Shown: piece by piece, positions 29,931-58,214 of the stretch
Numbering within the stretch: position 1 is the stretch's first letter
Layout: the number at the start of each line of letters is the position of its first letter
Assembly: GCA_050177605.1 (NCBI GenBank)
Contig: JBFXGX010000010.1
Coordinates: 1 to 58,214 of the forward strand
DNA length: 58,214 nucleotides
Direction of reading: 5' to 3'
DNA from: Candidatus Izemoplasmatales bacterium
GTDB lineage: Bacteria; Bacillota_I; Bacilli_A; Izemoplasmatales; Hujiaoplasmataceae
Program-made: the position numbers and the translations under genes
The notes under the pieces: generated by a model
The model's database searches: none
What the model saw: only the letters and a program-made list of their open reading frames with translations
Told to the model about the DNA's origin: nothing

Positions 29931-29994
29931 CTATTTCATTTCAAGCAATGTGCAACTCTCGACGTGTGTTGAGTATACGGTATTGCTTTCAAAA
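29931..29994 (-). repeat. att-like junction: conserved arm plus displaced rlmD tail STHVESCTLLEMK*
   Basis: Minus-strand translation matches the RlmD C-terminus; arm attgctttcaaaa 9 bp beyond the tail. Confidence 0.8.
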
Positions 29995-30260
29995 TGTAGA
30001 GTTGTGTATATTGGAGTAACATAAAAACAGACATATTTAAGCACATTCTATGTTCCCTCACACATATGCTGAGTGTATTGGAGAAACATATATTTGCTAA
30101 ATTATCGCTGGAAAATCAATACTTACTATCTGCCTCGAGTGTTACCTATTGCTTTCTATTTATATTTCCCCACTAGTAAACTGTATGCATATTCCATAGT
30201 ATACATTGTTCAATTACCCAATAACCTAAAAAAGGCAAATTCTGTTATCCCATTATGGGA

Positions 30261-30887
30261 TCAACTTATAGACCTCATCTCATTTTCTATAATTCGAAAT
30301 AGTTTAATTTTCACCAACAACTTCGAAATCACATATATTAATGAGAATATTAATATCATAATGACTGAAGATATTATTGCATCTAGGTAAATACCATCAT
30401 TGTTCTTAGCGAATGTTATTACGGTGATATAAATAATAATATTTATAGTCGAAATGCCTATGGGTTTACTTGCCTTCACACTTAAGTTTCTATTTTTTAT
30501 ATTCCTATATATATATTTATAAAACAACCAGAGGCCACCTAATTGAAATACAACCATTAAAATGAATAATGTGTCACCAAAAACATCACTTAAAATCAAA
30601 TATACTACAAAATCTGCCAATACAATCAGAAATCCTGCTGATAAAATATAATATGCATACTCCCTAATTTGCTTATTTAGACTTCTATATCGCAGAAAAA
30701 GTGCGCATACAATATATATCAAGTATATTAATGCTAATATAACAGAATGTAGAGTGAAATTGACGATAAAAAAACAGACAATTACTAAAATATAAAGCAA
30801 GTTAATCCCAATTGTGTACCTCAGGATTATTGAATTATTTATATAGGGTTTCGATTCTATAAATGCGGTTAACTTTTCTTTCTCCAT
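30261..30887 (-). CDS. Multi-TM putative immunity protein
   Basis: Directly downstream of a hydrophobic Rhs tip; RBS ggag. Confidence 0.55.
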   Translation of the reverse strand: MEKEKLTAFIESKPYINNSIILRYTIGINLLYILVIVCFFIVNFTLHSVILALIYLIYIVCALFLRYRSLNKQIREYAYYILSAGFLIVLADFVVYLILSDVFGDTLFILMVVFQLGGLWLFYKYIYRNIKNRNLSVKASKPIGISTINIIIYITVITFAKNNDGIYLDAIISSVIMILIFSLIYVISKLLVKIKLFRIIENEMRSIS

Positions 30888-30905
30888 ATATCCATCTCCT
30901 CAATC

Positions 30906-31860
30906 CTATGATATTGAGTTCTTCATCGGATCTTCTAGAACCTCTTCCCATAAATACCAAATGACAAGAGAGGCGATTGCTCCACCAATACCTGGAATTA
31001 AAATCCCAGCTGCTAAAGGGAGTATAGCAAACGCAATATCAAGGGCAGAATAACTTATTTGTTGATTTAACGAGAGATCATCGTTGCTAAAATTCTCATT
31101 TAGTGAAATTGCAATATCGACTGCAACAAGGACCACCGCAACAGCTGTCGCTGCTTTACTAGCAAATTCCGCCGTTTCTGATACACACATCCAGTTATTA
31201 GAATAAGCGATATATGCATCGGATAATCCATCTGGAATCGCCCTATACACGCTTCCAGCCAAATAAGGTCCCTCAGCCGCTAACGAGGTGGCTATATTTT
31301 GAGCAAAACTCGCTACCGATTCAGCTGCTAAACGAAGATGATATAGCACTCCAACAGAAAATCCAAGAGATTGATTGAGATAAGTTGAAGCATATACTTC
31401 ATTTTTTTTCAACCGATAAGTCGACTGAGGTTGTTTCTTTTGTATATGAGATAATTTGGTCACTTATTGAAAAGGATATTTCATAATCTTCCAAAACCAC
31501 TGAATATCCGTTCATAGATAATACATCACCAAGTTTTGCAAAAGAATCTGTAAAAGTAATGTGTCTTCCTACATTTGGCATGTAATAGCATAAATCAATT
31601 ATATACAGTGAAGTTTCTTCATCGAAAACATAGCTTCGATATCTAAATGAGTTTACATTTGCTATATTGGCATCACCAATCACTTCAACAACGTTACCAA
31701 AAGCATCATATTTATATTCAACAGCAACCGTTCCAGAGGTTGTTATGATATGAGTGATGTCCCCAAACTGATTCATAACATAAATGTAATCAAACGTATA
31801 ACCTTGAGAATATAGAGTAAAGCCAATTATGCTTCCATCATAATCGTAATTATATAATAC
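30906..31860 (-). pseudogene. Orphan Rhs core plus hydrophobic toxin tip, frameshifted at an A8 tract and truncated by IS3
   Basis: About 31630-31860 is nearly identical to about 35085-35315 of the large Rhs; T8 at 31402-31409 separates the two ORFs. Confidence 0.75.
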
Positions 31861-31928
31861 TTTGTTGGATTAGTTGCTTTTTTAACAGTACTAATAATGA
31901 ATATGTATACATAGAATTATATCACTTA

Positions 31929-32807
31929 TTAGGCTGATATAAAAGCCTTATTTTGAATTCTGTAACTAATAGGAGACATGTAATTGAGATAGGAATGCAT
32001 TCTCTTTCTGTTATAGAATAATTCAATATAGCGAAAGAGATCCATATCTACTTCAGATGGATTGAGATATTCCCTTCGATAGATACATTCCTTCTTAAGA
32101 CAAGAGAAGAAGCTTTCGATACAAGAATTATCAAATGGACAACCTCCACGACTCATACTCTGAATCATTCCATTGTCATTAAGGATATTCTTGAATCCAG
32201 CACCAACGTATTGGCTGCCTCTGTCACTATGAAATATTGTACCCTCTACATTAGGGTATTTGGCTATAGCATTCCCTATTGCCCTTTTTACTAGTTCTGT
32301 ATCAATGTTCTTACTGGCAGAATAACCAATTACTTCTCTATTGTATAGATCCATAACACAAGCAAGGTAATACCAGCCTATGGTTGTCTTGATATATGTG
32401 ATGTCACTGACCCAAACTTTGTTTGGTTCTTCCACTTTGAATTTCTGTTTTAATATATCATCAGCGAATCTTCCACTGGTCTTCTTGTGGGAGTATGCTC
32501 TGTATTTCTTTTTCACAACGGAGTAGAATCCGTTCTGGTGCATTATTTGGCGGACTTTCCACTCGCTGACTGCAAATCCTTCATTTGTCAGCTGCCTGTG
32601 TATTTTTCGGCTTCCGTAGACTTCTTTACTCTCTTTGAATACTCTCTCTACATCTCTAACAAGACCTAAGCCAGCTTCGCTTTTGAGATTCCTTCCGTCT
32701 TCTTGTCTTCGCCATTGATAATATCCTCGTTCTTTAACTCTTAATACAATGCACATCTTCCTCACGCTATGTTCCGAGGTCAACCTATGAATCGCTTCAT
32801 ACTTCAT
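31929..32807 (-). CDS. IS3 transposase OrfB (DDE)
   Basis: WVSDITY, FHSDRGSQY, DNSCIESFF, YNRKRMHS. Confidence 0.92.
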   Translation of the reverse strand: MKYEAIHRLTSEHSVRKMCIVLRVKERGYYQWRRQEDGRNLKSEAGLGLVRDVERVFKESKEVYGSRKIHRQLTNEGFAVSEWKVRQIMHQNGFYSVVKKKYRAYSHKKTSGRFADDILKQKFKVEEPNKVWVSDITYIKTTIGWYYLACVMDLYNREVIGYSASKNIDTELVKRAIGNAIAKYPNVEGTIFHSDRGSQYVGAGFKNILNDNGMIQSMSRGGCPFDNSCIESFFSCLKKECIYRREYLNPSEVDMDLFRYIELFYNRKRMHSYLNYMSPISYRIQNKAFISA

Positions 32808-33148
32808 TCGTGCTGTTCCATGAAGATGCGCAGGGATTTTTTTAGGATCTCTACCTTCTCTTTCTCTTCTTCTAAAAGTTTATTCTTTTGTTTGAGTGCT
32901 TTTTCCAGTTCTATGATTTTAAGATCCTTCTCATCTTTTCGCTTGTAGGGTCTTTTAACAATTCCTTTTTCCTCTGCGTAGGAAGGCATATTATTCTTTC
33001 TTCTGTGATCTCTCACCCATCTGCATACTGTGTTGACATCAATGCCTATCTCTTCTGCGACTGACGTCGCTGATTTTCCTGAATCGAGAATAAACTTCAC
33101 TGTTTTCTCTCTCATCTCTTCTGAATACTTACTACGGTTACTTGGCAT
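32804..33148 (-). CDS. IS3 transposase OrfA (HTH)
   Basis: KYSEEMREKTV...VAEEIGI...WV, coiled coil, EILKKS. Confidence 0.88.
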   Translation of the reverse strand: MPSNRSKYSEEMREKTVKFILDSGKSATSVAEEIGIDVNTVCRWVRDHRRKNNMPSYAEEKGIVKRPYKRKDEKDLKIIELEKALKQKNKLLEEEKEKVEILKKSLRIFMEQHE

Positions 33149-33191
33149 GGTTTCCTTTCCTTTCATTTTTGTATGCATATACTATTATACA

Positions 33192-33468
33192 CACTGTTCA
33201 AAAACCATACCAATCCACAATTCCAATGTACACAAGTAACATATTTTACTCTGGCTCTCCACAAAAAGGGATTCTAGACTTCACATCTAGAATCCCTTTA
33301 TTTTTATATGCATATACTATTATACACACTGTTTAAAAACCATACCAATCCAGTTTCACTCTTGTCTTGAACAAGTTGCATTCTTTTATGCATATGACAT
33401 CACATGTAACCACTGTTTAATAATCATTATACTCCAAAACCTTACTGTTTAAATTCCATCACAGTCCA
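33192..33468. repeat. Four tandem IS3-end-like 26-mers (ACTGTTYAA...TCCA)
   Basis: Copies end at 33217, 33352, 33436 and 33468. Confidence 0.65.
33265..33299. terminator. Strong hairpin between duplicated IS3 ends
   Basis: aaagggattctaga-cttcaca-tctagaatcccttt. Confidence 0.7.
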
Positions 33469-33616
33469 ATTACATTCTTGTCAAAAACAAGTTAAACTTA
33501 AACCCTATTCAACTCTATGATAAATCGTCATTTTTAAAACACTATAATAATACAAGCAGAAAGTTTACACTCACTGCTTGTTAGTAAATATTATTATAGA
33601 TTAATCAGGTTATATA

Positions 33617-34012
33617 CTATTTTTTAATTGAAATTTCAGTTTTTGTTAACTTATTTATAACATAAAAATATTTCTCTTTATCTTTTTTAAAAAATATAAG
33701 TATTTCGACTATTCTCCTAGTAAAAATATTCTTCAATGCTGCATTTTTGTGAACTTGAGAAGTTATTATTATACCCATAATTTTTTTACCATAACTCTGA
33801 AATTTAAATAGTCTATCAGAGAAAATATGGTGAATAACAATTAAAAACATATACAACCAAAATAAATAAGTACCTAACCCATTAAAAGATTGAGATATAG
33901 TATTATATAATAATGCAAAACCAATTATCAACGTAACTGATATAAGTATGTCTATTAAAACACTAATTAAATACTTATTTAGTAATATTTTATTAAAAGT
34001 TTGATTATTCAT
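33617..34012 (-). CDS. RDD-like membrane protein, putative immunity paralog
   Basis: SDRLFKFQSYGKKIMGI...RRIVE. Confidence 0.55.
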   Translation of the reverse strand: MNNQTFNKILLNKYLISVLIDILISVTLIIGFALLYNTISQSFNGLGTYLFWLYMFLIVIHHIFSDRLFKFQSYGKKIMGIIITSQVHKNAALKNIFTRRIVEILIFFKKDKEKYFYVINKLTKTEISIKK

Positions 34013-34017
34013 AATGT

Positions 34018-34422
34018 TTAATCCTTTTTTCCTAACAAAAAAATCTTGCTATTAGTTTTGGACTGTATTCTTTTCCAAGCTTCTTCTTGGTCATTATAGT
34101 AAAACGGATTATATATTAACTCTAGAATCCTTCTATAAGCTATTTGCTTTAAAGTTAGATTATTTCTCTCACTTGATGTATGTTTCATACTCGATATAGA
34201 AATACCATATAATCTTTTTCCTAAACTTCTCCCACCAAAAATCCTATCCGAGATAAAAAAACTTATAAACACTATCAATATAGATATAGTTAAAATGAAT
34301 CCTTGTTGTTCCAACATATAGAACATTACCAAATAAACCAGAATGGTAAGTATAAAAAACATAAACTGATCAAACAACACACTTTTGTTATACTTCTTGA
34401 TTGCTTCTCTAGTCACTTTCAT
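34018..34422 (-). CDS. RDD-like membrane protein, putative cognate immunity
   Basis: SDRIFGGRSLGKRLYGI...RRILE; start overlaps the Rhs 3' end. Confidence 0.6.
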   Translation of the reverse strand: MKVTREAIKKYNKSVLFDQFMFFILTILVYLVMFYMLEQQGFILTISILIVFISFFISDRIFGGRSLGKRLYGISISSMKHTSSERNNLTLKQIAYRRILELIYNPFYYNDQEEAWKRIQSKTNSKIFLLGKKD

Positions 34423-37400
34423 TATCGCTTCCTCCTTTAAATGCGTCAACAATCAGACCAAAGAAATCAATATCATACGATGCAGAAAATGAACCAACTC
34501 CTGGTTGTCCACCTGAAATTGACCATGATAATCCAGCTCCATAAGATTGTAAGTCAAGTGGATTGGTTGGATCTACTGATACATAGAATATTAAGAACGA
34601 TGCTGTAATTGACTGTGATCCATCTTCATTAATTGAATGACTTCCACCAAAAGGACCAACTTGAGCATTAACTGTTGTGGTAGACTCTGAACACTCTCCA
34701 TATGCATTACATGACTCACTTGTAATATTAGTTTGAACTCCAAAACCTACTCCCATTGCATCACCACCAAATCCAGCTGAATCAGGTGTTCCTCCACCTG
34801 CAGATACACTAATATTATCTCCTGTACCGCTGTCAGCAGGTGTTGTTGCAACAACACAAAAAGCAACAAGCGAAGACACTAATATAACAGTTAATGTTAA
34901 TAGTATGGATTCTCCCTCTGGATCAACATAAGCTATTGGGTTATTTTCACAATACGCATACATATTTGTTGACTTAAGACTAGTATCTCTTCCTAATAAT
35001 CCATCTGAATTAATAAATCTGGAAATTTCAGGATTGTAATAACGTGTTTTTAAATAATAAAAACTCGTTTCAGTATCATACTTATAGCTTCGGTACCTAA
35101 ATGAGTTTGCATTTGCTATATAGGCATCACCAATTACTTTAACAACGTTACCAAAAGCATCATATTTATATTCAACAGCAACCGTTCCAGAGGTTGTTAT
35201 GATATGAGTGATGTCCCCAAACTGATTCATAACATAAATGTAATCAAACGTATAACCTTGAGAATATAGAGTAAACCCTATTATAGTTCCATAATAATCG
35301 TAATTATATAGTATTTTGTAATCTTGATTTCTTAGTCCAGTTATACTATCATATCCATTATCCACGATCTCTGCTACTAACGAAGATCCAGACAATATGT
35401 AATCATAGGTTGTCATTCCAAGAGGATCCTCAATGACTTTCTTGATTCTTATTCGCTCATCGTTATAAGTATAATCTATTTCAGCCACAACTGCAAGCGA
35501 TGAATTGTAAACAGTTATATTGACCAGTTCTCTACCATCCCAGTGCAAGGTCGCAAAGTTGTATTTCGTTCCCATATAATTGAAATTTGTTATTTGAGTA
35601 GGGTTCCCTTGATTATCATATGAGATATTACTTGTTTTAGTCACTCCATTATCTAAAACACTATATGACTCAAGTTGATCCAACCAATCATCATCATATG
35701 TATATGAAACATGTTTTTCAGCACTTCTGAAATCACCGACTGGATTACCGACTTTAAAGACTATCCTGAATGTTAAATCATAGTTACTATATGTTGCATG
35801 ATATGTTCGATAATAATATCCCTCAACTGAGGTGTTCAAATTGCTATAAGTCATTGCAGTTGTCATTCCAGTTAAAGGATAGTCATGATTTGAATCCCAC
35901 ATATCATAATATATAAATGATAGCGATGGGGTTTGTCCAATGGCAAGATTATAAGTATCCATATAATCATTACTTCCGTTGTAGAACATGACTGCTGTAT
36001 AACTACCATTATTACTCAAATAATAGGAAGGAATAGTTGGGCTTACTGTATCACTGATGCCATATCCATATTCTCTAATATCAATTATATTTCCATTTAT
36101 ATCATAGTAATAGTATTTGGAATAATTTGTATTTTCGTATGCACTTTCAGTTGTGTATTGATAGTCTCTGGAACTCTCTTGAATCAATTGATTATAATCA
36201 TCATAGACATATTCTTTTTTAACTTGAACAGATCCGTTTTCCTTATATTCTTCCTTGGTAATATTACCAAGACTATCGTAATAATATTTATATGAAATAT
36301 CCGTATATCCTGAATAAGTAAAATTATATGTGATCTCGTCAATCCTAGTAGTGTTTGTAACGTAATCAAACTCCAAATTAAAATAACTTGTTGAATTGCT
36401 GTTTAAGAAATACTTGATTTCTAGTAGATTGCGTAGACCATAATCATTATAGATGTAGTCTTTCTTGATTGTGTTATTTCCGTTATTATATAATGTAAAA
36501 TCATAGAAATCCTGTTCAGCACCAGTCTCAAAATTATAATAAGTATTTGATGTTATCGTTCCGAAATTGTATTCAATATTACTCAAATTGCCTTGATCAT
36601 CATATTGATAAACAATTTCATCATCATTACTAAATTTAACCTTTGATAATCTTCCCTGCATATCATATTCGTAATTTTCAGAGGTTCCGTTCACCAGATC
36701 TTCATACACTGATACTCTGCCATATGAATCATATAAATAATGAAATCTTGTTACTTCTGTACCAAAACTATTGGTAAATCTAATATATTCAACTTGACCA
36801 TCTTCATTGTAAACAAAAGAAATCTCATCACCATTTCCATATGTCTGATTAGATAATATTCCTGTTTCAACACCATCGTTTTCATCAAGTAACAAATCTC
36901 TGAATTCAAGAGTATATGTTGAAGAACTGTAGAAAGCAATTATTACATACTGAGTTGTACTGCTTGTTGTAAACTCTTTTGTCAATTCTCCCGGGCTACT
37001 GATATATGAACTTTTCTGAACTCGAATATATGTAGATGTACTAGGATCTCCTGAATATTCAAAAATATTGAACATTGCTGATCCAGTTATTGACAGAATA
37101 TCCGCGGACACTGTATATGTTGTACTTCCTTCTACCTCAATAAATCCACCAAAATTAGGATCAACATTAATCTGGTTTGCCTGAAGTTCAACAGTTTCAT
37201 CATTATAGGTTACAGTTGAATAACCACTACTTGTATAAATTATTCCGCTTGACTCATAAATATTGTTATTTCCAAAATCGTATACATTAATCAAATTTAC
37301 TTCATTCTCCAAATAAGAATAACTCATTAATAGTTGAGTATTAACCATAACTTGATCCATTCTTCCAGCATCATCATAATGAATAAAGTATGAATAATCT

Positions 37401-40400
37401 TCATCAAGTTCAATCTCAATAAGACGATTCTGATCATCATAAACATATTTTACATAAGGAGCTCCAGTCGATGACTCACCAACATAAACTCTATATAACA
37501 TTCCGTTATCATAATATTCATATTGAGTCTTCACTCCTTTTGCATTCTCAATATATTCTAATAAACCTGTTAATTCTTCAGTCTGATATTCAGTGGTGTT
37601 TCCAAATTCATCAGTCGAAGTTGCAAGATATTGGCTATTCCACATATATGTAGTACTAGTTGTAAAATAGGTTGTTTCATATCCCTGCGTCATTTCATAA
37701 TATGATCCGTATCCACTTATTTCCATGCCTGTAACTTGACCGTAACTGTTATAAGTTGGTGTGGATTTGATATTGTTTTTTTCTACATATTCGAGTTCTG
37801 ATCCATCAGAATCCAACTCCATGACAACATTATTATTCTCATCTATCGCCTGATATGGATAATAATCTTCATCACTTGCATAAAGGAAGTTATATTCCTT
37901 TCCATCATCCCAAGTAATTCTAATTAACCTATCAAGATCATCATATTCATAAGCTTTATTTGAAGCTTCAAAAAATACAGAAATACCATCAAAAATAACT
38001 TCTCCCAAACCTTGATATTCAAAAGAGATTCTTGCTGATGTGTAAGTGTAACTTGGTACATCAATTTCTCCATAGATATATTGCCAACTATATATACATT
38101 GATTAAAATCCACATGTTGTGTGTCTTCGCTATTTATTACATTTCCGTTGCTGTCAACAAACTCTACAGTTATTCTAAAAACCTTATCACCATCATAATT
38201 TGTATTTCCAACAAGAGGTGAAGAGTATGTATTCGCCCAAGAACCAACATAAAATGTTCCACCATTTCCAATCTGATCGAAATAGTTTTTCTCGATTGTT
38301 GTTGAGATGCTTCTAATATCAGTAGCAGAACCTTTTATACCAACAGCATGTTCGCTTAAAATCCATTCGAATGTATCATTAATGTCATTATTTCCATCAT
38401 TGATAGAATAATATGTCGTATAGTTTGGATCCGAAATAACCCATCCAGTTGTACCATTATTTTCAAATGAGGAATTCTCAACAATATTGACTCTACTGTC
38501 ATTAATGCCATCTACTACACTCACATTATCAAATCGTACATTTCCACCAGTTTCATTATACAAATATAGTGTAATCTCTGTATTATCTTCTCTAACATAA
38601 ATAGGAACACTGACATTCTGCCATCCACTACCACTCTCGACCTCTTCTGATGATACGCCAAGAACTTGTATATATGCTCCATTATCAGATCCAGATGTAT
38701 TATAAATGCTTGCCCTAAATGTATAGACGCCTTCATTTAGCACGATATCTTGATAGGCATATCCCCCAGTTGAAAAATCATTGGTTGCTATTGAATAATT
38801 ACCAACACATTCAATTGATGATTTATATGCTGTTAATTGTGATAATGACCATCCTGTATATGTTCCAATTTCAAAGCTGTAATTTTCTACCGGATTGTAT
38901 GTTAGCTTTTGTGGTACAGATTGATAAATCAACTCGTTATTTCTATAATAGTTATAATCACCACTAACATATGTTGATTCATCATTAAAAATATCTATGT
39001 AATTGTAATAGACTGTATTTGTTTTTTTATCAATTATATTTGTTGTATGACCATAATCATCAAATTTGTAAATAACAAAACTACCCGTGTGATCAGTAAT
39101 CGTTGTTTCCCTGAAACCATAATCGTAATTTACTTCTGAAAATTTTGTTGTATCGAAAAACGACTCTATAGTCATAATTTTATCGTTTATTGTGTTTATA
39201 TAAGTATATTCTATTTTTTCTCCATTTGTTACATACGCATACTGCAGTCTATCATAATAGTCATAGTCATAATTTGCTGTCGCATCAATATTGGTATCAT
39301 TATCCTGATCATAATCAGAATAGTACTTAACTTGACTTATATCCTCTGTTCCAGATTCATATGTATAAACAACCTTTTCAAGGTAGTCTGTTGAAGTGCC
39401 ATCAGACTCTATTTTCGCTGTTCGAAGTAAAATATACGACAAACTGTCGTTTGAATAGTAAAATCTTAAGTAATTATTCGATGAATCTTTAACATAGTTG
39501 ATTCGATCGGGATATGTTGAATCTCTACTGATGGTTATATAAAGGCTATACTCAATCTCCTTTATGCTTGTTAAATAACCTGAATTATTGTACGAAAATC
39601 TATTTGCTCCATCATATATATAATAACCTGCTAATGACCCATATATTGTCTTTTTATTAAGTATTTTTGCTGATCCATCTTCACTTACATAACATGTGTC
39701 TGTATATGGATATCCGGAGAGATAATTGCTTGGACATGAAGTTGGATAATAATAGACAATATTCCCTGTAAAGTCCGTGGTATAGTACAAATCCAAATCA
39801 TCATCATAATCTATCTTAGTATTATAACTAACATTCCAACCGTCTCCATAGCCAATATTATTATCCTTTTCCGAATTATTGTATGCAAAACTCACACCTA
39901 AACTCTGTTTATCCGTTGCAAAACTAAAGTCGGTTCTTGTAAAAGTAAGATATCCTGTATAATCTGATACATAGCCAGTACCAACAATCCCAATATCTTG
40001 AGAATTATAGGTCCAGTAATCTTTAATTCCAAAAGTATTCACAAAACCAATTTCGACAACAGGCCCCAATGTACTACTGTAGTTTTCAGAATTAAACCAA
40101 ATATAGCCATATTCTCCTTCATCCTGGCTTCTCAATTCTATCGTTCTGTATGGAGTTGAACTATTAGTCCACCTCTGCATATTATATGTAATGTCAAACA
40201 TATATGTTCCGGTATCTCCATCGGAATAGAGAACATTTGCAAAATCAATTTCTCTGGAACTAGTTATATTCAACCCTTCTGCGTTTATATTATCATAATC
40301 AACAGTAGCGAGCACTTCTTTTGCAAGAATAGTACAATCGTTTGTACAATAATTTCTTCCAGTATAGGTTTGAAGATATAGATGTGCATAATTAATTTTA

Positions 40401-41455: not shown

Positions 41456-41528
41456 TTTTCTTTTCCCCTATAAATGTTTTTGCAGTACAAAATACACGTT
41501 TACACGTGTTTGTTATTATTTATCACTT

Positions 41529-46608: not shown

Positions 46609-46630
46609 AGATTTGAGTCTTCAACTTTTT

Positions 46631-46700: not shown

Positions 46701-46863
46701 TGAATCTTGTGTGTATCAAAGAAACATCATAAGCGACCAAAATTTATTTACCTTTACAAGCTTGGATCCTGATTATAATAGCAAAGCACCATAAAATATA
46801 TCGAATAATTGGTAAACACTACTGGAATTTACTTTTACTGGATAATGTAGTAGATATCAATCA

Positions 46864-49395: not shown

Positions 49396-49665
49396 ATTAT
49401 TTCCTCCACTTAATTTTATTATATGCAATTATATGGAGACAATCAATACATTTATTCTAATTAGTAGCGTATTACCAAAAGTAATTAGTATTATTCAAAA
49501 TACAATCGATTATTGTGAAACATATCACGTAAAAGATGGATTAACTAAGATGCTTACCTGAGTTGTGGTGATATAATTTTTAGAAGAATTGATGTCCCCC
49601 CACTCAAGTAAAATATATGCTTAATGCATAGTCTGATGTTTCCACATTACGCATAAAATGAAAAA

Positions 49666-49704
49666 AGAAGCATTTAATCCTGTTTGAAGGGATTAAATGC
49701 TTCT
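49666..49704 (-). terminator. Hairpin downstream of displaced rlmD tail
   Basis: agaagcatttaatcc-N9-ggattaaatgcttct. Confidence 0.75.
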
Positions 49705-49728
49705 TCTACTGTTGCATGAATGGCTTTG

Positions 49729-49870
49729 TTAAGCTGTTTTTAAAGAAAGCATCGTGATAGTTTCAACGTGCATGGAGTTTAGTGGATTGCTTTCAAAACG
49801 GCACCACAAATTCATTCGAATAATGTAGTCTGGTAACATGTTTTGTGCCATAAGCACACTTGGAAAAGGA
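49729..49870 (-). repeat. att-like junction: about 90-bp arm plus displaced rlmD tail SMHVETITMLSLKTA*
   Basis: Arm closely matches 56655-56745. Confidence 0.85.
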
Positions 49871-49899
49871 GAAAACTCTTAAACGAAATATTCATTTTC

Positions 49900-50202
49900 T
49901 CACCTCCGGTCCACTGCAAAATATATGATTTCACTATCGTAATACCCACTTGCCGGACCTAAATCCCACGAAAGTTGGTCCGGCGTCAACCCTGATTTGT
50001 GAAGAATAGATGAACCACCAGTCCCGTGTTTCTCGGCCCACTGGCCAGTATTGGTCTGAACCATAAAGTGATAGTCATATACATATTTGCCATGTCCACC
50101 TGTCCCAATTGGGATTGTTGTTCCAACTCTCAAGGCTATTCTCCATTCATTGCTTTCTATGTCTGCATTTGGTCCTGAAATCTTCCGTACTGTAAATCCC
50201 AT
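49900..50202 (-). pseudogene. Orphan toxin-tip-like fragment
   Basis: DYHF..Q...G.W..K.G motif; last module of the Rhs array; no core or immunity gene. Confidence 0.45.
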
Positions 50203-50229
50203 GACAATCCATAATATTTTTTCCCTAAT

Positions 50230-50691
50230 TTAGTCATTATCAACAAAAACTTCGCGTATTACCCCTCTTACAAATCGAGCAATTGCGATATTCTGGTTTA
50301 AATTAATCTGTTGCCATAATTTATCCGCATCAACTGGAGCTTTCGGAAGAAACCATAATACAGATTGAACCACTACAGCTGTTCCAAAAGTAATAGATGC
50401 ATTAATCGTTGTTTCCTTGAAGGATAACCCGTCGTTAATGCTATGCGCAATTGAGGTTGCTGTTGCTAAAGCAATTTTTCCTGCTACAATGTATGCTGCA
50501 CCAAGTCCTGAACTTACGAGAGCTCCATAGGCTGCTCCACTTAGTGTTTCAATTGCAAATCCCTCAAAATGAATTCATCACCTGTTACTAATATTGAAAA
50601 ACTATAACTAAGAGCTCCAAATAAGGCTCCAACAATAGCTCCTATTAAAAATTTGCGCCATTTCCCCATCAGGATCAAAGTTCATTACCGG
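50230..50691 (-). pseudogene. Displaced Rhs tip (PVMNFDPDG...), two frameshifts; not in ORF track
   Basis: Manual translation: PVMNFDPDGEMAQ / LIGAIVGALFGAL / AIETLSGAAYGAL...VFVDND*. Confidence 0.7.
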
Positions 50692-50715
50692 AGTAATGTA
50701 TACGAGAGTATACAA
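50683..50715. repeat. Rhs cassette junction site
   Basis: cattacc-gg-agtaatgtatacgagagtataca; 27/32 identical to 53216-53247. Confidence 0.75.
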
Positions 50716-50789
50716 ACGTCTTTTCGGTAATTGAGTTGACCATATCTGTTACCTTGCTTTTTCGATGCGTGTATTCTCATGTCTCCCTA

Positions 50790-51401
50790 CTACTGAAAAT
50801 TTCCTAAATTTCTAAGGAGCCCCCTAAATGTGAATAAAATGACACTTCGAGGATCTTCCTGTGAATATTGTTGGTCCCACATTATTGAATACCCAATATT
50901 ACCTGTCATATCATCATAGTGATAGTAATAACAAGTTACATCCTCGTCTGTTTGTTTTTCTTCAAATATCTGCTTATATATTGTTACACCACCTTGGTAA
51001 TCAAAAATCACTTGATTTGTCACATTGTCAATAAATGATATATATTTTTCATATTTTGAATACTCTAGTAAGTTCTCAAAACTCTCTTCGTAGTGCCATA
51101 ATTGGGCATAAAAGAATGCCACATTCATATCGTTTGTGAAATGAAAAACAATCTCGAAATCGTTGAATATATATTGAATTTCAAAACTATCATTTCCGAG
51201 AATTTGAGTTATCGGATTTCCATCGAAATCGTATTCCAGAGCAATCCCGTCAATTAGTGTCAATACTTCAGATAGATACACTCCAACAAAGTCTTCATCG
51301 CTTTCATTCCAGTTTGCGTAGGAAGCATAATTCGGATTCGAGGAGCAACCAACAACAAAAACAAAAAGGAACAATGCCAAAATTAAAAATATTCTTTTCA
51401 T
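50790..51401 (-). CDS. Lipoprotein, putative immunity
   Basis: MKRIFLILALFLFVFVVGC lipobox; follows Rhs tip. Confidence 0.7.
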   Translation of the reverse strand: MKRIFLILALFLFVFVVGCSSNPNYASYANWNESDEDFVGVYLSEVLTLIDGIALEYDFDGNPITQILGNDSFEIQYIFNDFEIVFHFTNDMNVAFFYAQLWHYEESFENLLEYSKYEKYISFIDNVTNQVIFDYQGGVTIYKQIFEEKQTDEDVTCYYYHYDDMTGNIGYSIMWDQQYSQEDPRSVILFTFRGLLRNLGNFQ

Positions 51402-51405
51402 ATTT

Positions 51406-52072
51406 TCACTCTCCAAATGGCCAAGCATTTCCCAAAATACGGCGAAAATATGTTTTGGGGGTCTGCGTCGTTTCAAAATCAACATATTGTGCTCGATAGA
51501 CTTGTTGTTCAAACCAATTTCCATTGATATTTGAGTCAAATCTCAGACTTGTTAATGAATTGTATAATCTATCATGATATTCAAATTCCCTTAACATCTG
51601 TCCGGTAGTCCAATCAGAATATTGATCTGAATATTGATTTTGTAGATAGAGAATAAAACTCAATTTTTCTTCTCTGCTGAGACCGGTGGTATTGTTTCCT
51701 CTCAATATGCTTTCAGCCTTATCCTTGTCCATTGTAGAAACATCGCTATTGTTGATATATATCTCTGATTCAACGACTGTAGCAACATTGGAGCCAAGTA
51801 GGTATCCTGCTCCTGCGGCTGCAACGGCGACCAAAGCTCCCCCACCAGTAGCGACAACAATAACAACAGCCACAGCTGCAACCGCCAATCCTCCAGCAAC
51901 CTTCCAAAATGTTGTCCATGAATATCCGTCGCTGTCTAGATACATTACTGGATTATTTGCGCAATACGTATACATATTCGTGGAAAGGATATCGCCAACT
52001 TGACCAAGTAATCCATCCGCATTGATAAATCTTCCCACTTCAGGGGTATAATACCGGCTATTGAGATAATAC
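51406..52072 (-). pseudogene. Orphan Rhs core end plus toxin tip
   Basis: YYLNSRYYTPEVGRF...NNPVMYLDSDG; about 150 bp nearly identical to about 54380-54525. Confidence 0.8.
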
Positions 52073-52205
52073 CTATCCAATATGTTTTTTGTGCTTGATA
52101 GATAATACTTTGTCTGTATATTTAACTATAAGAATCTGAACACTAAAAAGAAACAAATATAAGAAAACTAGTTTAAATAAAAAGCCAATTAATGAAAACC
52201 TTCAG

Positions 52206-52640
52206 TTATGAGGTAATATCAATAAATAATGCTAATATGCGAAGAAAATCTTCCTCAGAGCATTGTCTATATAACCCTCCAGTACTTTCGCCAGAACTTG
52301 AATAGAATTCGGTTGCATATTGACTTAATTTTTCATAACTACCATCTTTGTCATATATAACAAAAACATATCCTCTTACACTGTCTAGATCTCCTAAAGG
52401 ATAATAAAACTTAACTTGTGATATTTCATCTATGAATATATCCGCTTCGTCAGTAGTTAAATCTTTTATGAATATTATTTCTTGTACACTCCGGGAACTA
52501 GAATTAAGAATAATTTGCTCGATGGATATATGGTCTACATTTTCCACCATTTCGTCATATGAATAGGAATACTCACCTTGACATCCAATTACTCCTAAAA
52601 AAAGCATAAGCAAAACAAACATTAATATATATTTTTTCAT
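52206..52640 (-). CDS. Lipoprotein, putative immunity
   Basis: MKKYILMFVLLMLFLGVIGC lipobox. Confidence 0.7.
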   Translation of the reverse strand: MKKYILMFVLLMLFLGVIGCQGEYSYSYDEMVENVDHISIEQIILNSSSRSVQEIIFIKDLTTDEADIFIDEISQVKFYYPLGDLDSVRGYVFVIYDKDGSYEKLSQYATEFYSSSGESTGGLYRQCSEEDFLRILALFIDITS

Positions 52641-52642
52641 AA

Positions 52643-53224
52643 CTATCTATTTACTCCTCCAAAATAATCGGCTGTAGATTCCCATAGAAAATCATAATAA
52701 TGATCGTAATAATACTGGTACTTCCTAGCAAGTAAATTAACTGTCATCGATGGTATAGCAACTATAGCAACGTACCCTGCAAAACCAAGTATAGATAATT
52801 GAACTGTATGCCCCCATTCATGTTGTAATGATGTTACATCGCTTGTTCTTTCAAGAAAAATCATTCCGAATGAAAACGATGAAAGAAATGAGTTTTCAAA
52901 TCTAATAACTGCTGTTCCTTTATAAAAACTGATCTTTTCTGAATCAAATGCTAGATTAGCATCTCTATTAAATGGATTCCACTTTATTCTTTTAATATCT
53001 TCATATACTGTTTCATCCCACGACGATGACATAATAGCAAATCCATAAGCTGATATATTCATCAAAAATTGTGGAACGGATGCCAGACCGGGAATTAAAC
53101 TTAGAGGAGCAGTAGCTATAAGTGCTGAGATTGATAAGGCTGTGATAATTGCTCCTCCAATAAAGCGACCAACGTCTTTGATCCATTCTGCAATAAACCC
53201 ATTTGGATCGTTTAACATTACTGG
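52643..53224 (-). pseudogene. Displaced Rhs tip with HEXXH motif
   Basis: Begins PVMLNDPNG with no upstream core; contains QHEWGH. Confidence 0.72.
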
Positions 53225-53247
53225 AGTAATGTATCCAGGAGTAGACA
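53215..53247. repeat. Rhs cassette junction site
   Basis: acattact-gg-agtaatgt inverted repeat followed by a conserved arm. Confidence 0.75.
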
Positions 53248-53362
53248 CAAGACAAAAATGTTTTTATGAACACACACCATTTGAGATTATAATTCCACTG
53301 TGTAAACTTAATTTTATTTACGTGAAATAGAGAAGTCAAATACAATTTCCACTTAATTAATC

Positions 53363-53839
53363 TTATATTCTGGCATATGAATATGATGCAATTATTTCTT
53401 GTAGAATAGTAGTGTCCATTGCTTCAACTAAGAAGACAAAACTTGTAGAATAACCAGGATCATTGTTACTTTGCATAAATATAGTATACAACTCCATTTC
53501 ACCGTCAGGAGTGGAAAAACGATAAAGTGAGAAATGTGCACCGGTTGACCCTGAATAATCACTACTAATTAGTTCAATTCGCGAATATGATTCAAAATAC
53601 TCATTGTATGCCCATTCCCCATACATTCCATGATATTCTTCAATGGCTAAACTTTCTTGGGTGTCAGAATTTATTATTGAAATCCATCCATCGCTTTCAA
53701 CGAAATCCCAATCTAGCGGAAGTTCAACTGAACCTAGTTTTTCATCAGGAATATTGACCTTTTGATAACCATTCGAATTCGAAGAACATCCTATCAAAAA
53801 AAAGACAATTATTAGAGCACATGTTATTATTTTTTTCAT
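53363..53839 (-). CDS. Lipoprotein, putative immunity
   Basis: MKKIITCALIIVFFLIGC lipobox; RBS aggagg. Confidence 0.7.
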   Translation of the reverse strand: MKKIITCALIIVFFLIGCSSNSNGYQKVNIPDEKLGSVELPLDWDFVESDGWISIINSDTQESLAIEEYHGMYGEWAYNEYFESYSRIELISSDYSGSTGAHFSLYRFSTPDGEMELYTIFMQSNNDPGYSTSFVFLVEAMDTTILQEIIASYSYARI

Positions 53840-53857
53840 ATTATCATCCTCCTTCTA

Positions 53858-56293
53858 TTAGTATATTGGGGACAAATTCGAAATTCCATATAAAATTTCA
53901 GCGAGCGATTCCGCAATAAAAGCGGTTGGATCAGAACCCCAAACAGGAACTCCTAAAGCAGCTGGGTTGCTATGATCTGGGAAAAGTCCCAAATCATATG
54001 CTATATAATGCCCTTGTAGTTCGATATACATTCCCAATTCAGTTCTTCGAGAGTTGTTAGAATAATATGTGTTCTTGAGATAATTCGCATAAAGACCTGC
54101 GGTGTAGCAACTATAAAACGAATTGCCTTCCAAATCAAAATAAAAATCAATCATGTCGATATTAGGGTCTGGGTTTGGGATAATTGTAGATGATATTTCA
54201 TCCCAATTATCTTTCACCGGTAAATAGTCACCTAAGATTATTCCTGATGCAGTATATCCTGCAAGTTCCCAGCCTTCAGAACCAAGATCCTTTGCTGTTT
54301 CATAAGCTTTCATTGCTCCATGTACAGCAAGAGTAGTCATAATTGTCACAATCAAAAAGACAAATATAGCAAATTCCCCGTCGCTGTCTGTATACATTAC
54401 TGGATTATTAGCACAATACGCAAACATATTCGTTGAAAGGATATCTCCAAATTGACCAAGTAATCCATCCGCATTGATAAATCTTCCCACTTCAGGTGTA
54501 TAATACCTGCTATTGAGATAATACCAAGAAAGTTCTTCATCGTAGCGGTATCCGCGATATCGATACGGATTGATGTCCCCAATGGTTTGGTTCGGAGTTT
54601 GATTAGTGATATTGCCATAAGCATCATAGACATAATGCACCACAACATTCCCAAAACTGTCCACAATATGTGAAATGTCGCCCATTTGGTTTCTTAGGTA
54701 GAAATATTCGGTTCCAGCATATTGATCGTTGACATTTGAATCGTAGTTGAAACTGATCAAGGTCCCATCGAAATCATACGTAAACAGTATACCATAAGTT
54801 CCGTTTGTTTCGTATATCACTTTGTCATCAATTAGCTCATAAGTAACCGTTTCAGTCAAAACAGGGGTGTAGCCAGAGAACGTGTAGAAAGCCTTCGAAG
54901 TCCGATATCCTTGGTCGTTATACTTGTAACGGATTTGATATGCAGGAGTCGAACTTCCCGACATGATCGTGATAGTACTCAATTCTCTTCCGCTCCATGA
55001 CAAGCTTGCGCCATAATAAGTGGTCCCGTTGTAAACGAAATTCGTGATATAAGTCGGGTTGCCTTGATTGTCGTAGGTGTATTGCTGAAGGGTGGCTTCC
55101 GTTTGAGGAACTCCGTTGATGTATTCAATCTCACTTTAGCTTAAGAGTTGGGCTTCCCAGTTGCTGCTGTAGTTGTAATGAAGATGTTCTTGAGGTATCG
55201 TATTGTATGGTAGTGGAGTACCCACCTTGATTACAATTCGGAATGAAATGGTGTAGTACATTCCGTCCGTTGCGGTATACTGGCGATAATAATAGCCAGC
55301 CACTGATGTGTTGAGATTATCATACGTCATTGTTGTGGTCATTCCTGAAATCGGGTACTCATGATCAAAATCCCATTCATCATAGTACGCAAATGATAAT
55401 GATGGCGTTTGACCAACATTTAGGTAATACATATTTTGATACGTTTTGTTTCCATTGTAAAGCATGTTAGCATCATATAGCCCGGAATTTGATTGGTAGT
55501 ATGATGGGGCTGTCGGTGTTATTATATCATTTTGCCCATACAAGAATGTCTTGACATCAGTTCGGTTTCCATGAGAATCATAATAGTAATATTTGGTGTA
55601 ATTTGAGGCAGACAGGGTTGTTGAACTATAGTTGTAGTCTCTACTGTCCTCTACAATCAATTGATTGAGCGCATCGTACTCATAATTTCGGTATAGCTTG
55701 AGTGTGGTTCCTTCATAGTAATACTCTCGAATAATATTTCCAAGAGAATCGTAATTGTATGAGTACTAGTAGTCTACTCCTGTCCCATTCAATTCGTAGG
55801 TGATTTGATTAATTCTGGTTGTATTGCCCGAATAAACGAAGTTTTGCTTGATGTTCAAACTACTCCAAGTCAAATTGATGTACTCAAGTCGGTATAATGC
55901 TTCATCTTCGTAATGATAGTCTTTCACCATATCAAAACCAGAAGCGGACTCATATTCGGTTTTGTCATACAAGCTCGAAGTTTGGATGCAAGCATCGTTT
56001 TCATCATACAAGAAACATTCATTATATGTGTAGTTTGTGGTAGAAGATTGGCCAACAATTTCAAAATATAAAGATGTCAAGTTTCCAGAAACATCATAGA
56101 TGTATTTGATGATGTTTCCTTCCTCATCCACCGCCTGGATCAGATGGCCGTTTGAATCATATGTATAAAACTCGCTTGCCACAACCTCATTCGTTGTCGT
56201 TTCTGGAAGCGAATTGGCGTAAGTTTGTTGTATGTTCGGAAGAAGGCTTCCGAGCATCGCGATGATGCCTAGGATTGCGAAAAAGCGTCTCAT
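53858..56293 (-). pseudogene. Internally deleted Rhs toxin gene with two in-frame stops
   Basis: Three listed ORFs share one frame, interrupted by TAG (55766) and TAA (55136); signal peptide is fused to late YD repeats; paralog of 34409-41455 (GQTPSLSF..MTT..NLNTSV.GYYYR). Confidence 0.85.
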
Positions 56294-56529
56294 TTTCCAT
56301 TGAAGTCTTGCGCAAGTGCTAATGTGAATTCTGTGCTAACTTCATGTTCTAACCATTTTTACATTGTCAATTTCTCCTTAAAAAAGGCATGCAACTTGTG
56401 TGCACACCCTAGATGTAAAGTAAAAATGATAGTAATAAACCAAACTGATATTTTCATTATATACCCCCCCGAAATATTGTCAATATTTTAAAATAAATAT
56501 TTATTATTAGTTTATTTTTTTTCATAAAA

Positions 56530-56572
56530 AAAAACGCCATCAGTCATTCCTAAAGAGCACGATGGCGTTTTT
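56530..56572 (-). terminator. Hairpin downstream of displaced rlmD tail
   Basis: aaaaacgccatc...gatggcgttttt. Confidence 0.65.
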
Positions 56573-56606
56573 GATTGTTTTTTTAGATGAATTGAATATA
56601 TACTAG

Positions 56607-56745
56607 TTAAGATTGTGAATAAGTAAGTAATGAAACTGTTTCCACGTGCGTGGAGTATAGCGGATTGCTTTCAAAACGGCACAAAACCGTTCGAATAATG
56701 TAGTCTGGTAACATATTTTGTGCCATTTGCACAAATGGAAAATGT
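56607..56745 (-). repeat. att-like junction: arm plus displaced rlmD tail STHVETVSLLTYSQS*
   Basis: Tail matches the live rlmD end; arm matches 49777-49870. Confidence 0.85.
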
Positions 56746-56987
56746 AGGGCAGTAGCATGTCAAATATGTTCCTACGATCATATTGCCTTGAAACAACTGT
56801 ATAGGCGTTTTCCAATTTTCCTACTCGTCATACATTGGGATTCTTCATAATTCTTCAATTGTTTCCTGATCAAACATAATCTTTGCCATATTCTCACCTT
56901 TTGAGTATATTTATCAAAAAATACCATGCATTGCTTCTCACACCTTTTTTGTGTGTCCACAATACAGGGTACCTTTTAGCAGTTAGC

Positions 56988-57623
56988 CTACTTTTTAATT
57001 AATAAACGATAAAGCAAAACGAACAAAATGACCAAAACCCCATATTCAATCGAAATTGAAATGACTACTTCGGTCATGGAATAACTCCCGTTATTCGGTA
57101 AAAAAGTAGCATATTGTAATAATGGAACAAGGCATAGTCCAAAAATCCATATCCACAACATTATCATCCGCTCACGGTTGATTCTTGAGAGCTTTCGATA
57201 TCCTATTTTTGCATTTCTTCCATTTTCCATAATAAAGAATGTCCCAAAGGATAAGATGACTGCCAAGAATGAGGTGATGAAAAATGGAACAAATTCATCG
57301 CCTCTAAACCACCCGGAAAAACCTAGACAAGCGATAAAAACGCCAACAGAAAGAAGAACAGTTGAAATAATAATCGCATTTCTTATTCCGAAATCAATCT
57401 CCTTTGTAGACGACTCCGTTGTTTCATTGACGGATCCCATCAATTCATCAGGTGAAATTCCCAAGGCAAGGGACAGGTTGTTTATGGACGCCAATTCCGG
57501 CAGCCCCCTCCCCGTCTCCCATTTCGAGATTGTCTTGCTGCTAACAAATAATATATCAGCAAGTTCTTGTTGGGTCAAATTCTTCTCTCTTCTTTTATTC
57601 CTAATCAACACATCAATTTTCAT
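56988..57623 (-). CDS. XRE-family HTH regulator with C-terminal TM helices
   Basis: LTQQELADILFVSSKTISKWETGRGLP plus about four TM segments. Confidence 0.85.
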   Translation of the reverse strand: MKIDVLIRNKRREKNLTQQELADILFVSSKTISKWETGRGLPELASINNLSLALGISPDELMGSVNETTESSTKEIDFGIRNAIIISTVLLSVGVFIACLGFSGWFRGDEFVPFFITSFLAVILSFGTFFIMENGRNAKIGYRKLSRINRERMIMLWIWIFGLCLVPLLQYATFLPNNGSYSMTEVVISISIEYGVLVILFVLLYRLLIKK

Positions 57624-58047
57624 ATGAATCCTCCTTCAATTCCGACTCTATTATATCGAAATATTCCACAACTTCAACCTACGATTCGTAGGAAAACTCT
57701 ACTCCTTATGCATAATTCGAATCCGAGCATGTAAGAACTATGATACACGCTCGAGACTTGCAAAGGTAGAAGAATAATTCAACAAGATGAACGGATTAGT
57801 TGAAATTAAATCAGTATATATAAATGAAATCATGTCCATACAAAGCATATCATTTAAGAGATAGGTATGCAAGTGAATTTCTGAGTTCCAGTTGAACTCA
57901 TACTCACAGGAAAACATGTTCCCACAAAATCCGAAATTGGCTCGTAAAGAGAAAAAGCGCCATTCAACCTTAAGACGGGTTCAATGGCGTCATTAATAGT
58001 TATTTCTGACTATATTACTCAAAATCATATGATTGTTTATAGGAAAA

Positions 58048-58214
58048 TCACGGAAGTGAATAGGAAAGCAATGAGACGGATTCCACATGATTCGTTTGTG
58101 GAAACATATCCACTGGTTGTACAGCATGCATTGTATAACCATTTTTAACAAGCTCTACAACATCGGATGCTAATGTTTCTGGATTACAGGATATATAAAC
58201 AAATTTCTTTGGTT
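58048..58214 (-). CDS. rlmD: 23S rRNA (uracil-5)-methyltransferase RlmD/RumA, 3' end (5' part outside window; not in ORF track)
   Basis: [17 protein letters not shown]...[24 protein letters not shown] (SCNP and DMFPxTxHVE motifs). Confidence 0.9.

Follow-up and report, generated by a model that had tools for sequence, protein, structure and literature searches.

The staphylococcal cassette chromosome (SCC) has its insertion site at the 3' end of rlmH (orfX). In parts of PMC11470126 the tandem cassettes at rlmH are described as being excised by CcrAB and as rich in defence genes, with ACME and COMER lacking recombinases of their own. PMC6222049 presents the Enterococcus cassette chromosome (ECC) as an SCC-like island with variable cargo and large serine recombinases, and passages of PMC7168690 and PMC13651849 portray streptococcal rumA as a hotspot of serine-recombinase elements that show tandem accretion. 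The locus analysed here is the 3' end of rlmD, the gene for the RumA-type methyltransferase of U1939 in 23S rRNA, in Candidatus Izemoplasmatales bacterium GCA_050177605.1 (labelled G000 in comparisons between genomes). The assembly is a 1.94-Mb metagenome bin of 66 contigs, 89% complete, and the window studied is the whole of contig JBFXGX010000010.1 (C10), 58,214 nt in length. Positions 29931 to 58214 of this window probably represent an SCC-like accretion array of mobile cassettes at the rlmD 3' end, served in trans by a large serine recombinase.

The likeness to SCC lies in the target, which is the 3' end of an rRNA methyltransferase gene, in the tandem arrangement of att-flanked cassettes, many of them recombinase-less and, it would seem, moved by a neighbour's enzyme, and in a cargo rich in phage-defence and metal-resistance genes. 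Tandem att-delimited cassettes of which some are recombinase-less are represented here by four junctions plus the head site in rlmD, with no recombinase among the units. The differences are equally specific. The target is rlmD, of the TrmA/RumA family, and not rlmH; the host belongs to an Acholeplasmataceae-like family; the cassettes are mostly 0.7-7 kb long; and the crossover falls inside coding sequence, with a cassette site that mirrors the gene tail. The candidate recombinases on contig C53 of this genome and in the relative G084 score only 96-110 bits on the NCBIfam models for CcrB/CcrC (cut-off 900) and 72 on that for CcrA (cut-off 700). In ECC, ccrAB are the only conserved genes, whereas the units here are recombinase-less and the recombinases of relatives are not Ccr equivalogs. 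As in the integrative and conjugative elements (ICEs), integrative and mobilisable elements (IMEs) and prophages at rumA, insertion is into the 3' part of rlmD, with a replacement end contributed by the element. However, those elements are tens of kb in size and carry their own integrase and transfer or phage genes, none of which is present in the four units. An element-encoded large serine recombinase is absent from 29931-58214, and is present in the relatives G084, G069 and G014.

Two further kinds of element invite comparison. Cis-mobilisable elements (CIMEs) are att-flanked, lack recombination genes, persist beside an integrase-bearing element and can move together with it; the units described here are likewise att-flanked, without recombination or transfer genes. 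ICESt1 and ICESt3 of Streptococcus thermophilus insert at the 3' end of fda by means of a tyrosine integrase, whereas the present sites have a 2-bp core and a dyad, and the recombinases associated with them are serine recombinases. Integrons, like the present array, hold ordered, promoter-poor, recombinase-less cassettes, probably inserted at the head, whose ends are imperfect palindromes. By contrast, no IntI gene adjoins this array, and neither attI nor Pc is present. Phage_integrase (PF00589) was matched genome-wide only on contigs C3 and C41 and in a fragment at 7270-7623 of the window, about 22 kb outside the array. Furthermore, each cassette has its own terminator, the head is rlmD, and the sites look like double-stranded dyads rather than the folded bottom strands of attC. 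The original prediction for this DNA had offered an integron-like array serviced in trans as one of two readings. In view of the lack of IntI and of a shared promoter, and of the separate tail and terminator of every cassette, 'SCC-like' fits the array better.

The live rlmD end (58048..58214, minus strand; PF05958) holds the last 54 codons of the gene. The first 431 are on contig C18, whose part of the protein scores 398 bits on TIGR00479 rumA/RlmD (cut-off 183.55), and two additional RumA-type paralogues of rlmD are found on contig C6. Besides the live end, the original prediction had reported four displaced tails. All five were recovered on the minus strand with the peptides as quoted, their stops lying at 58048 (live) and at 56607, 49729, 46631 and 29931 (displaced). 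Elsewhere in the assembly, tails of this type are limited to the live end of a C6 paralogue and one unrelated match on contig C8. The sequence before each displaced tail has the general form TTKNNWGCAAT-N15, the arm being the stretch that precedes the spacer. The exact arm ATTGCWTKCAAA is matched four times in the window, every time at a junction. With up to one mismatch the number of matches in the window rises to 10, against 4.33 ± 2.15 in shuffled sequences, of which none in 100 reaches 10. The regular expression TTTG[AC]A[AT]GCAAT has seven matches in the whole genome, and a tail follows only four of them, all on C10.

All four junctions lie on the minus strand. J1, a conserved right-end module (56607..56745), has its arm at 56664-56674 and its CA at 56647-56648, followed by the displaced tail STHVETVSLLTYSQS; J2, also a right-end module (49729..49867), has its arm at 49786-49796, its CA at 49769-49770 and the tail SMHVETITMLSLKTA. 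In J3 (46631..46770) the arm is TTGCATGCAAT (46688-46698), the CA lies at 46671-46672 and the tail reads STHVETVTMLELKKS. J4 (29931..30065) combines an arm at 29982-29992 and a CA at 29965-29966 with the last tail, STHVESCTLLEMK. The fixed offset of 9 bp that had been claimed holds throughout: at all four junctions, 9 nt separate the end of the arm from the Ser codon and 15 nt separate it from the CA. The predicted centre of symmetry on the CA of the His codon is likewise present: 13, 13, 13 and 15 of 26 positions are complementary about it at J1 to J4, against 6 of 26 at the live rlmD site. When the junctions are aligned, as had been suggested, the four displaced ones share the order arm-N15-CA-tail, while the live site is not symmetric. 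Folding also bears out the terminator-like hairpin proposed behind each tail, since a hairpin followed by a T-run is found after all five stops (z-scores -2.4 to -6.0). A simple terminator scan found six sites where 6.6 were expected, and among the five tail hairpins it flagged only that of J3.

The CA of the live gene, at 58088..58089 on the minus strand, is the candidate crossover dinucleotide of the head site (B-CA-tail), and the assembly itself may branch there. C18, which has an overlap of 127 nt with C10, terminates exactly at the A of this CA, in the His codon between ...QTNH and VES..., as might be expected of a branch in the assembly graph. This observation, together with the fragmented, incomplete state of a bin drawn from a metagenome, could be taken to mean that the tails of several strains have been merged into one contig, and among the contigs listed those of the Logan assemblies of runs X1 and X2 (possible source samples) mostly begin or end near J1 and J2. 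Such an assembly chimera is nevertheless highly improbable. The longest exact string common to the junction neighbourhoods is 25 nt, against the 127-nt overlap used in assembly; X1 and X2 contigs span J3 (46583-47575) and the CA of J1 (56613-58214, continuing into rlmD); and equivalent arrays occur in a relative assembled as one contig (G023) and on long contigs of two others (G069 and G006). The joint between C10 and C18 is itself bridged by one X2 contig.

The junctions divide the array into four units on the minus strand. E1 (56649..58087; 1441 bp from CA to CA) consists of a replacement tail, a hairpin, a 59-aa open reading frame (ORF) and a gene for an XRE-HTH protein (56988-57623) whose C-terminal half is hydrophobic. 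E2 (49771..56646; 6878 bp) contains fragments of an Rhs core (Pfam RHS_repeat) along with toxin and immunity modules that are orphan C-termini, its core being homologous to sequences on contigs C29 and C53, and has no full rhs gene. E3 (46673..49768; 3098 bp) encodes AbiEi (48805-49428; PADLOC 2.5e-62), AbiEii (47927-48808; 2.1e-103) and an S66 LD-carboxypeptidase (46864-47934), all with Pfam support. E4 (29967..46670), which holds a fragment of a cyclase gene and has a cargo that includes Rhs, HNH and insertion sequence (IS) IS3 genes, measures 16706 bp from CA to CA. The sizes predicted for the first three units (about 1.44, 6.88 and 3.10 kb) were accurate, and the fourth, given as at least 15 kb, now has a definite length. 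The claim that no unit encodes an integrase was upheld by Pfam searches of the 36 ORFs of the region (at least about 50 aa) and by six-frame searches of the genome. The former returned, as the only recombinase-like match in any unit, the IS3-type transposase at 31929-33178, and detected no relaxase, coupling-protein, type IV secretion system or phage structural family. In the latter, Resolvase and Recombinase domains were confined to contigs C38 and C53.

The junctions of this array yielded the search pattern TTNNNWGCAAY-N15-CAYGTNGAR, for which the reversed pattern served as control. In 71 genomes of the family it has 29 matches, distributed over 15 genomes, and the control none. Across the order, junctions are found in 16 of 158 genomes, nearly all of them from this family (14 of 70 in family f1, one of 77 in f2 and none of 10 in f3, plus this genome), with two matches to the control. 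In the 29 junctions, complementarity about the CA extends on average to 14.6 of 26 positions, in a count for which the search pattern fixed only one side of each mirrored pair. Moving the centre by 1-4 nt reduces the mean to 5.3-9.1, and placing it on a single base reduces it to 4.9-8.3; at 11 live gene sites it is 6.2. The cassette-side site is a mirror image of the gene tail around a 2-nt asymmetric core. A dyad about such a core is the usual form of a serine-recombinase site. Alignment of the 29 junctions shows about 165 bp to be conserved, with a module identity of 80-88%. The conserved parts are a palindrome, AAACATATTTT...AAAATATGTTT, at -75 to -45; TTKCRAGCAAT at -26; TCCACG adjoining the CA; and the coding tail. 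In many junctions about 30 nt more are conserved 3' of the stop. The palindrome, which lies upstream of the arm, can also be read as AAACATATTTT...AAAATATGTTTCC (for example at 56700-56745 and 49825-49867 of the window). One half is similar to a stretch of rlmD coding sequence, GATATGTTTCCAC (VDMFP), that is found 8-20 nt ahead of the CA in the live gene. The palindrome might serve as a second binding site or as the operator of a regulator, or might be a relic of the gene site.

Tandem arrays with all junctions on the same strand are present in G023 (three junctions), G069 (four) and G006 (four). That of G023 sits behind a methyltransferase of paralogue type, and a methyltransferase found in the family search heads that of G069 (C36:240127). 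In G020 and in G019, a single unit of about 1.9-2 kb separates a live from a displaced tail, the G020 unit bearing identical direct repeats of about 70 bp. The cargo in relatives comprises AbiEi/AbiEii with S66; Fic with a transglutaminase-like protein; AAA_14/DUF4143 ATPases with a partner; an OLD-type nuclease with a UvrD-like helicase, beside ArsR, a metal ATPase and a MerA-like reductase; a Rhs C-terminal toxin with an RDD protein; and, in one unit, an XRE protein together with a full large serine recombinase. Eighteen units in seven genomes are fully delimited. Two of these encode a full-length recombinase and one a truncated one, and most measure 0.7-4 kb, with between one and three intact genes. 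In these relatives, arrays composed of such one- to three-gene cassettes are the rule.

One cassette has been exchanged between genera, with a boundary at the CA. E3 is 88.4% identical at the nucleotide level to the AbiE+S66 cassette of G023, which belongs to a different genus, over 2856 bp; the alignment stops 3 nt before the CA of J3, and beyond this point the two genomes differ. The neighbouring cyclases of the same two genomes are only about 51% identical in amino acid sequence. The same three genes with the same boundaries also recur in G019, likewise of another genus; none of the three copies has an integrase, and the upstream neighbour of the cassette is different in each genome. Cassette order varies too: G069 and G006, which are congeners, differ in the order of the Fic plus transglutaminase-like cassette and the cassette of AAA_14/DUF4143 ATPase and partner, one having the reverse of the other. 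On this comparative evidence E3 behaves as a discrete recombinase-less cassette, and E1 is probably another.

An instance of natural presence and absence comes from run X4, which stems from a different study and was available as assembled contigs only, in pieces about 86-99% identical to the window. One X4 contig joins 58088 to 49768, running through rlmD up to the CA and then into the tail of J2 with an overlap of 2 bp; its shorter side is 127 nt. The joint omits 8319 bp, which is exactly E1 plus E2. X4 also covers the cyclase fragment, E3 and J2 and has nothing of 44000-45895, while its cyclase contig continues past 45958, and not into E4. We infer that the X4 strain has the order rlmD-E3-tail-cyclase and lacks E1, E2 and E4. 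No joint at the CA was found in the assembled contigs of X1 and X2, which drop rare variants, and X3 gave only five short pieces. Four joints with low support and a shorter side of less than 30 nt were set aside: 49770 to 56511 and 44531 to 46607 in X2, and 56580 to 56664 and 53238 to 54387 in X1, the last of which agrees with the arrangement on C53.

The X4 joint bears on the possibility that the locus is a hotspot without a dedicated enzyme, at which modules of about 165 bp, with 80-88% identity, would provide portable homology and the units would be shuffled by homologous recombination after transformation or transduction. Phage-ICE fragments at the streptococcal rum locus are reported, in portions of PMC13651849, to spread by transformation and RecA-dependent recombination, and the J1 module shares 86-88% identity with that of J2 over about 100 bp. 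A partial cyclase gene behind J3 and a paralogue-type tail and terminator at J1, both considered below, are footprints of flank recombination. Nevertheless, the gene sequence to the left of the CA has no relationship to the arms, so that homologous exchange cannot produce the joint of gene, CA and tail with its 2-bp overlap. Moreover, the homology between E3 and G023 ends 3 nt from the CA, and a dyad on a 2-nt core plays no part in homologous recombination. This explanation is therefore considered distinctly unlikely.

The idea of a serine recombinase is supported by the 2-bp CA overlap in X4, by the dyad about the CA and by the recombinases found at element ends in relatives. A search of this genome for a large serine recombinase, as proposed with the original prediction, found one full copy, on C53, and one truncated copy, on C38, both on unplaced contigs. 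The C53 protein is a putative large serine recombinase of 526 aa that starts with MEKEKITALYCRISRED, has the N-terminal motif YCRISRED and matches PF00239 (Resolvase), PF07508 (Recombinase), PF13408 (Zn_ribbon_recom) and PF14287 (DUF4368). C53 is a Rhs orphan array like E2 and may be either an allele of the central part of E2 or a second locus. Its recombinase gene is directly followed by the start of an orphan toxin, which has 84% identity to 53199-53248. The 3' end of a C53-like recombinase gene also stands before this toxin start in X4, and in G015 an 87%-identical recombinase of C53 type lies in a Rhs island that begins at the tail of a paralogue-type methyltransferase. From these recombinase-bearing counterparts, E2 looks like a recombinase-less relative of such an island, reduced in content. 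The prediction had left a choice between an array serviced in trans and a series of reduced elements; both descriptions apply, the first to E3 (and probably E1) and the second to E2.

The C38 gene (C38:11987-12946) is cut by the contig end, lacks the codons for the first ~73 residues and adjoins copZ- and copA-like genes. Over 319 residues it has 100% amino acid but only 95.1% nucleotide identity to the recombinase that heads the array of G069, a genome of a different genus, and its G+C content is 41.9%, compared with 33.6% for the rest of the contig, which points to recent transfer between genera under purifying selection. The window's own tyrosine-integrase fragment, a 130-aa frame at 7252-7632 on the plus strand that covers PF00589 positions 55-170, may be the remnant of an unrelated element.

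Among the relatives, the one-contig genome G084 encodes a full recombinase of 572 aa, with Resolvase, Recombinase and Zn-ribbon domains, in convergent orientation with the methyltransferase and about 215 bp from its stop; a junction of arm and tail lies 52.5 kb downstream. The two types of site here enclose an element that bears a recombinase. The full 574-aa recombinase of G069, 61% identical to the G084 enzyme, lies within the array directly behind a tail, and a closer relative of that enzyme (77% identical) ends a prophage-like region upstream of the array. In G014, a recombinase of 531 aa that shares 47% identity with the C53 protein has its end at a distance of about 1.8 kb from a junction of arm and tail, and G006 has a truncated one of 376 aa within its array.

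These genomes also allow an assessment of simple decay, under which four independent integrase-bearing elements (prophages, ICEs or IMEs) entered rlmD and later lost their integrases by deletion, never having been cassettes and now being immobile. Several observations accord with such a history: the reduction of E2 relative to recombinase-bearing versions on C53, in X4 and in G015; the IS3 element and broken Rhs pieces in E4; the truncated recombinase in the G006 array; and the lack of a PF07508 match in six of the 15 junction-bearing genomes. It had been stated that relatives carrying the same units with integrase genes and random deletion endpoints would refute the prediction. For E3 the opposite is found, in that the copies in G023 and G019 have the same three genes, the same ends and no integrase, and random deletion would not yield identical compact units. 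Nor does decay account readily for the scarcity of recombinases among the 18 delimited units, most of which are small and intact, or for the permuted cassette order between congeners. Simple decay is judged unlikely.

In the mechanism proposed for the accretion array, each cassette would travel as a circle bearing arm-CA-tail, that is, a left half-site that mirrors the tail, the CA, 13-15 replacement codons, a stop and a terminator. A large serine recombinase would exchange strands at the CA, which belongs to the His codon of rlmD's conserved HVE(S/T) motif. The gene would from then on end with the incoming tail, and its former tail would come to lie downstream, behind the arm of the cassette. 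As the crossover would be within coding sequence, each cassette would have to bring its 13-15 replacement codons, and this coding sequence would keep the right half-site constant. The products would consequently have the same form as the substrates, with a gene-type site at the head and cassette-type sites at the internal junctions. The head site would then never be exhausted, which would explain the stacking: cassettes could accumulate without limit, the newest beside rlmD, and recombination between head and junction could release a block beginning at the head by the same reaction, with no need for a directionality factor. Since no unit encodes a recombinase, the enzyme must be supplied in trans, and candidates for its source are a relative of E2 (C53 type) or an enzyme of prophage type (as in G084 and G069, represented here only by the truncated gene on C38). 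Such an exchange may still take place in present-day populations.

A number of results weigh against this proposal. There is no recombinase within the array (29931-58214), and because C53 and C38 are unplaced in an 89%-complete bin, their recombinases are assigned to this organism by binning only. Two clades of recombinase, about 25% identical to each other, accompany a single type of site. Genomes with junctions are not enriched for PF07508 (nine of 15, against 28 of 56 without junctions) or for C53-like proteins (five of 15 against 14 of 56), and the six junction-bearing genomes without a PF07508 match include G020, listed as 100% complete; many arrays may thus be fossils. The G006 array (C5, L147:3759-16172, four junctions) has no methyltransferase at its head on that contig. 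A serine-integrase site needs about 50 bp, and the conservation of the junctions, including the palindrome at -75 to -45, extends well beyond this. Finally, the J3 tail with its cyclase fragment and the paralogue terminator of J1 are the footprints of processes other than clean site-specific insertion.

These last two features, which the original prediction had missed, merit closer description. Directly behind the J3 tail (45955..46640, plus strand) lies a truncated second copy of a tocopherol-cyclase-like gene, comprising the C-terminal 217 aa and a bidirectional terminator. It is 90% identical in amino acid sequence, and 88.6% in nucleotide sequence over 685 bp, to the resident gene, whereas the closest cyclases in the other species compared are 54-64% identical; hence the fragment derives from a close sister lineage. 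The J1 tail and terminator (to ~56509) copy those of the paralogous methyltransferase on C6, with which they share 95% identity in a stretch of 44 bp and 84.8% in one of 145 bp. Of the four displaced tails, those of J3 and J1 are thus pieces of chromosomal flank, and the array was not built by clean site-specific accretion alone. The position of the cyclase fragment implies that E4 and the block of rlmD-E1-E2-E3 were joined by at least one event that carried flanking DNA and that was homologous or illegitimate rather than site-specific recombination. Two scenarios fit. A circle consisting of the E4 cargo, the J4 arm, a tail and part of the cyclase gene could have entered an X4-like chromosome by a single homologous crossover; alternatively, the block from rlmD to E3, tail and cyclase could have been imported from a sister strain with one homologous and one illegitimate end. 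The paralogue-type tail of J1 would fit with the kinship of E2 to islands at the paralogue, as in G015.

On the far side of the array, the resident full-length tocopherol-cyclase-like gene (28765..29736, plus strand) is convergent with rlmD and forms the chromosomal flank; about 165 bp (29768-29930) separate the J4 stop from its terminator. The nearest named relatives of the cyclase are from metagenome-assembled genomes of Acholeplasmataceae, Mariniplasma and Izemoplasmatales, at no more than 55% identity, and relatives are present in 25 of 41 related genomes, this one included. The comparison of rlmD-cyclase loci suggested with the prediction was uninformative as to synteny, since rlmD was not found downstream of the cyclase in seven relatives, in stretches of up to ~19 kb of which several were ended by contig ends. 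The adjacency of rlmD and cyclase is specific to this lineage, and for this reason the 3' flanks of rlmD were compared instead. Contigs end within about 4 kb of the rlmD 3' end in six of 14 stretches around rlmD orthologues of relatives, and in G019 two contigs share one rlmD end. Such breaks suggest strain variation near the 3' end of rlmD in many samples. The three junctions of G020 are on three contigs, and in G006, which is 99% complete, the only RumA-type gene found lies on a contig other than that of the array.

The cargo of E4 includes a 313-aa regulator-like ORF (44169-45110, plus strand), a 105-aa ORF with a PADLOC match to SpbK, a DUF6119/TIGR04141 protein, an HNH protein, a 2348-aa Rhs protein (34409-41455), two RDD proteins, the IS3 element (31929-33178) and Rhs orphan modules. 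The label RRNPP that had been attached to the ORF at 44169-45110 has no support, as this ORF has no family match in Pfam, NCBIfam or PADLOC. A trio made up of the 313-aa regulator-like ORF, an ORF of ~100 aa (PADLOC SpbK, 3.4e-11) and a small HNH protein is shared, at 31-52% amino acid identity, between E4 (41529-45110), where the DUF6119/TIGR04141 gene sits within it, and C6:17348-19163, just downstream of the paralogous methyltransferase; the C6 locus may hold another integrated element whose right end is not recognisable. Rhs-core sequence is repeated within both E4 (35084-35319 and 31630-31865, 94% identical) and E2 (54378-54525 and 51926-52073, 93%), and these repeats could drive the exchange of toxin tips through homologous recombination. 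The gap between the J4 stop and the cyclase contains a stretch that is 82.5% identical, in inverted orientation, to sequence beside the IS3 element (33142-33221). The same motif is repeated at 33158-33217 and 33293-33352 and at 9653-9692, and has the look of a small repeat element or of the end of an IS.

Among the papers listed in literature searches, no account of such arrays in Acholeplasma-like bacteria was found. The array is of a known kind, in that it probably represents stacking of SCC type, and differs from what is known in the target gene, the recombinases, the host lineage, the small size of the cassettes and the mirror-image site. If the proposed reading is correct, the stacking of recombinase-less cassettes behind an rRNA methyltransferase gene is not confined to staphylococci and enterococci, and has arisen at another gene, in another lineage and with other serine recombinases. 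A broader proposition is tentative, and somewhat more doubtful than not: that the Acholeplasmataceae-like family runs a platform for cassette exchange evolved independently of SCC, in which integration and excision would be one reaction without a directionality factor, release would be limited to blocks containing the head cassette, the last in being the first out, and small defence, toxin and resistance cassettes would circulate between genera, served by any recombinase-bearing cassette or phage that happened to be there. A natural pair of recombinase sites whose products are formed like their substrates would, if real, predict an unusual directionality. The arm-N15-CA-tail module provides a precise, searchable site that delimits defence and toxin cassettes, including many genes with no assigned function, in poorly studied and mostly uncultured wall-less Bacillota.

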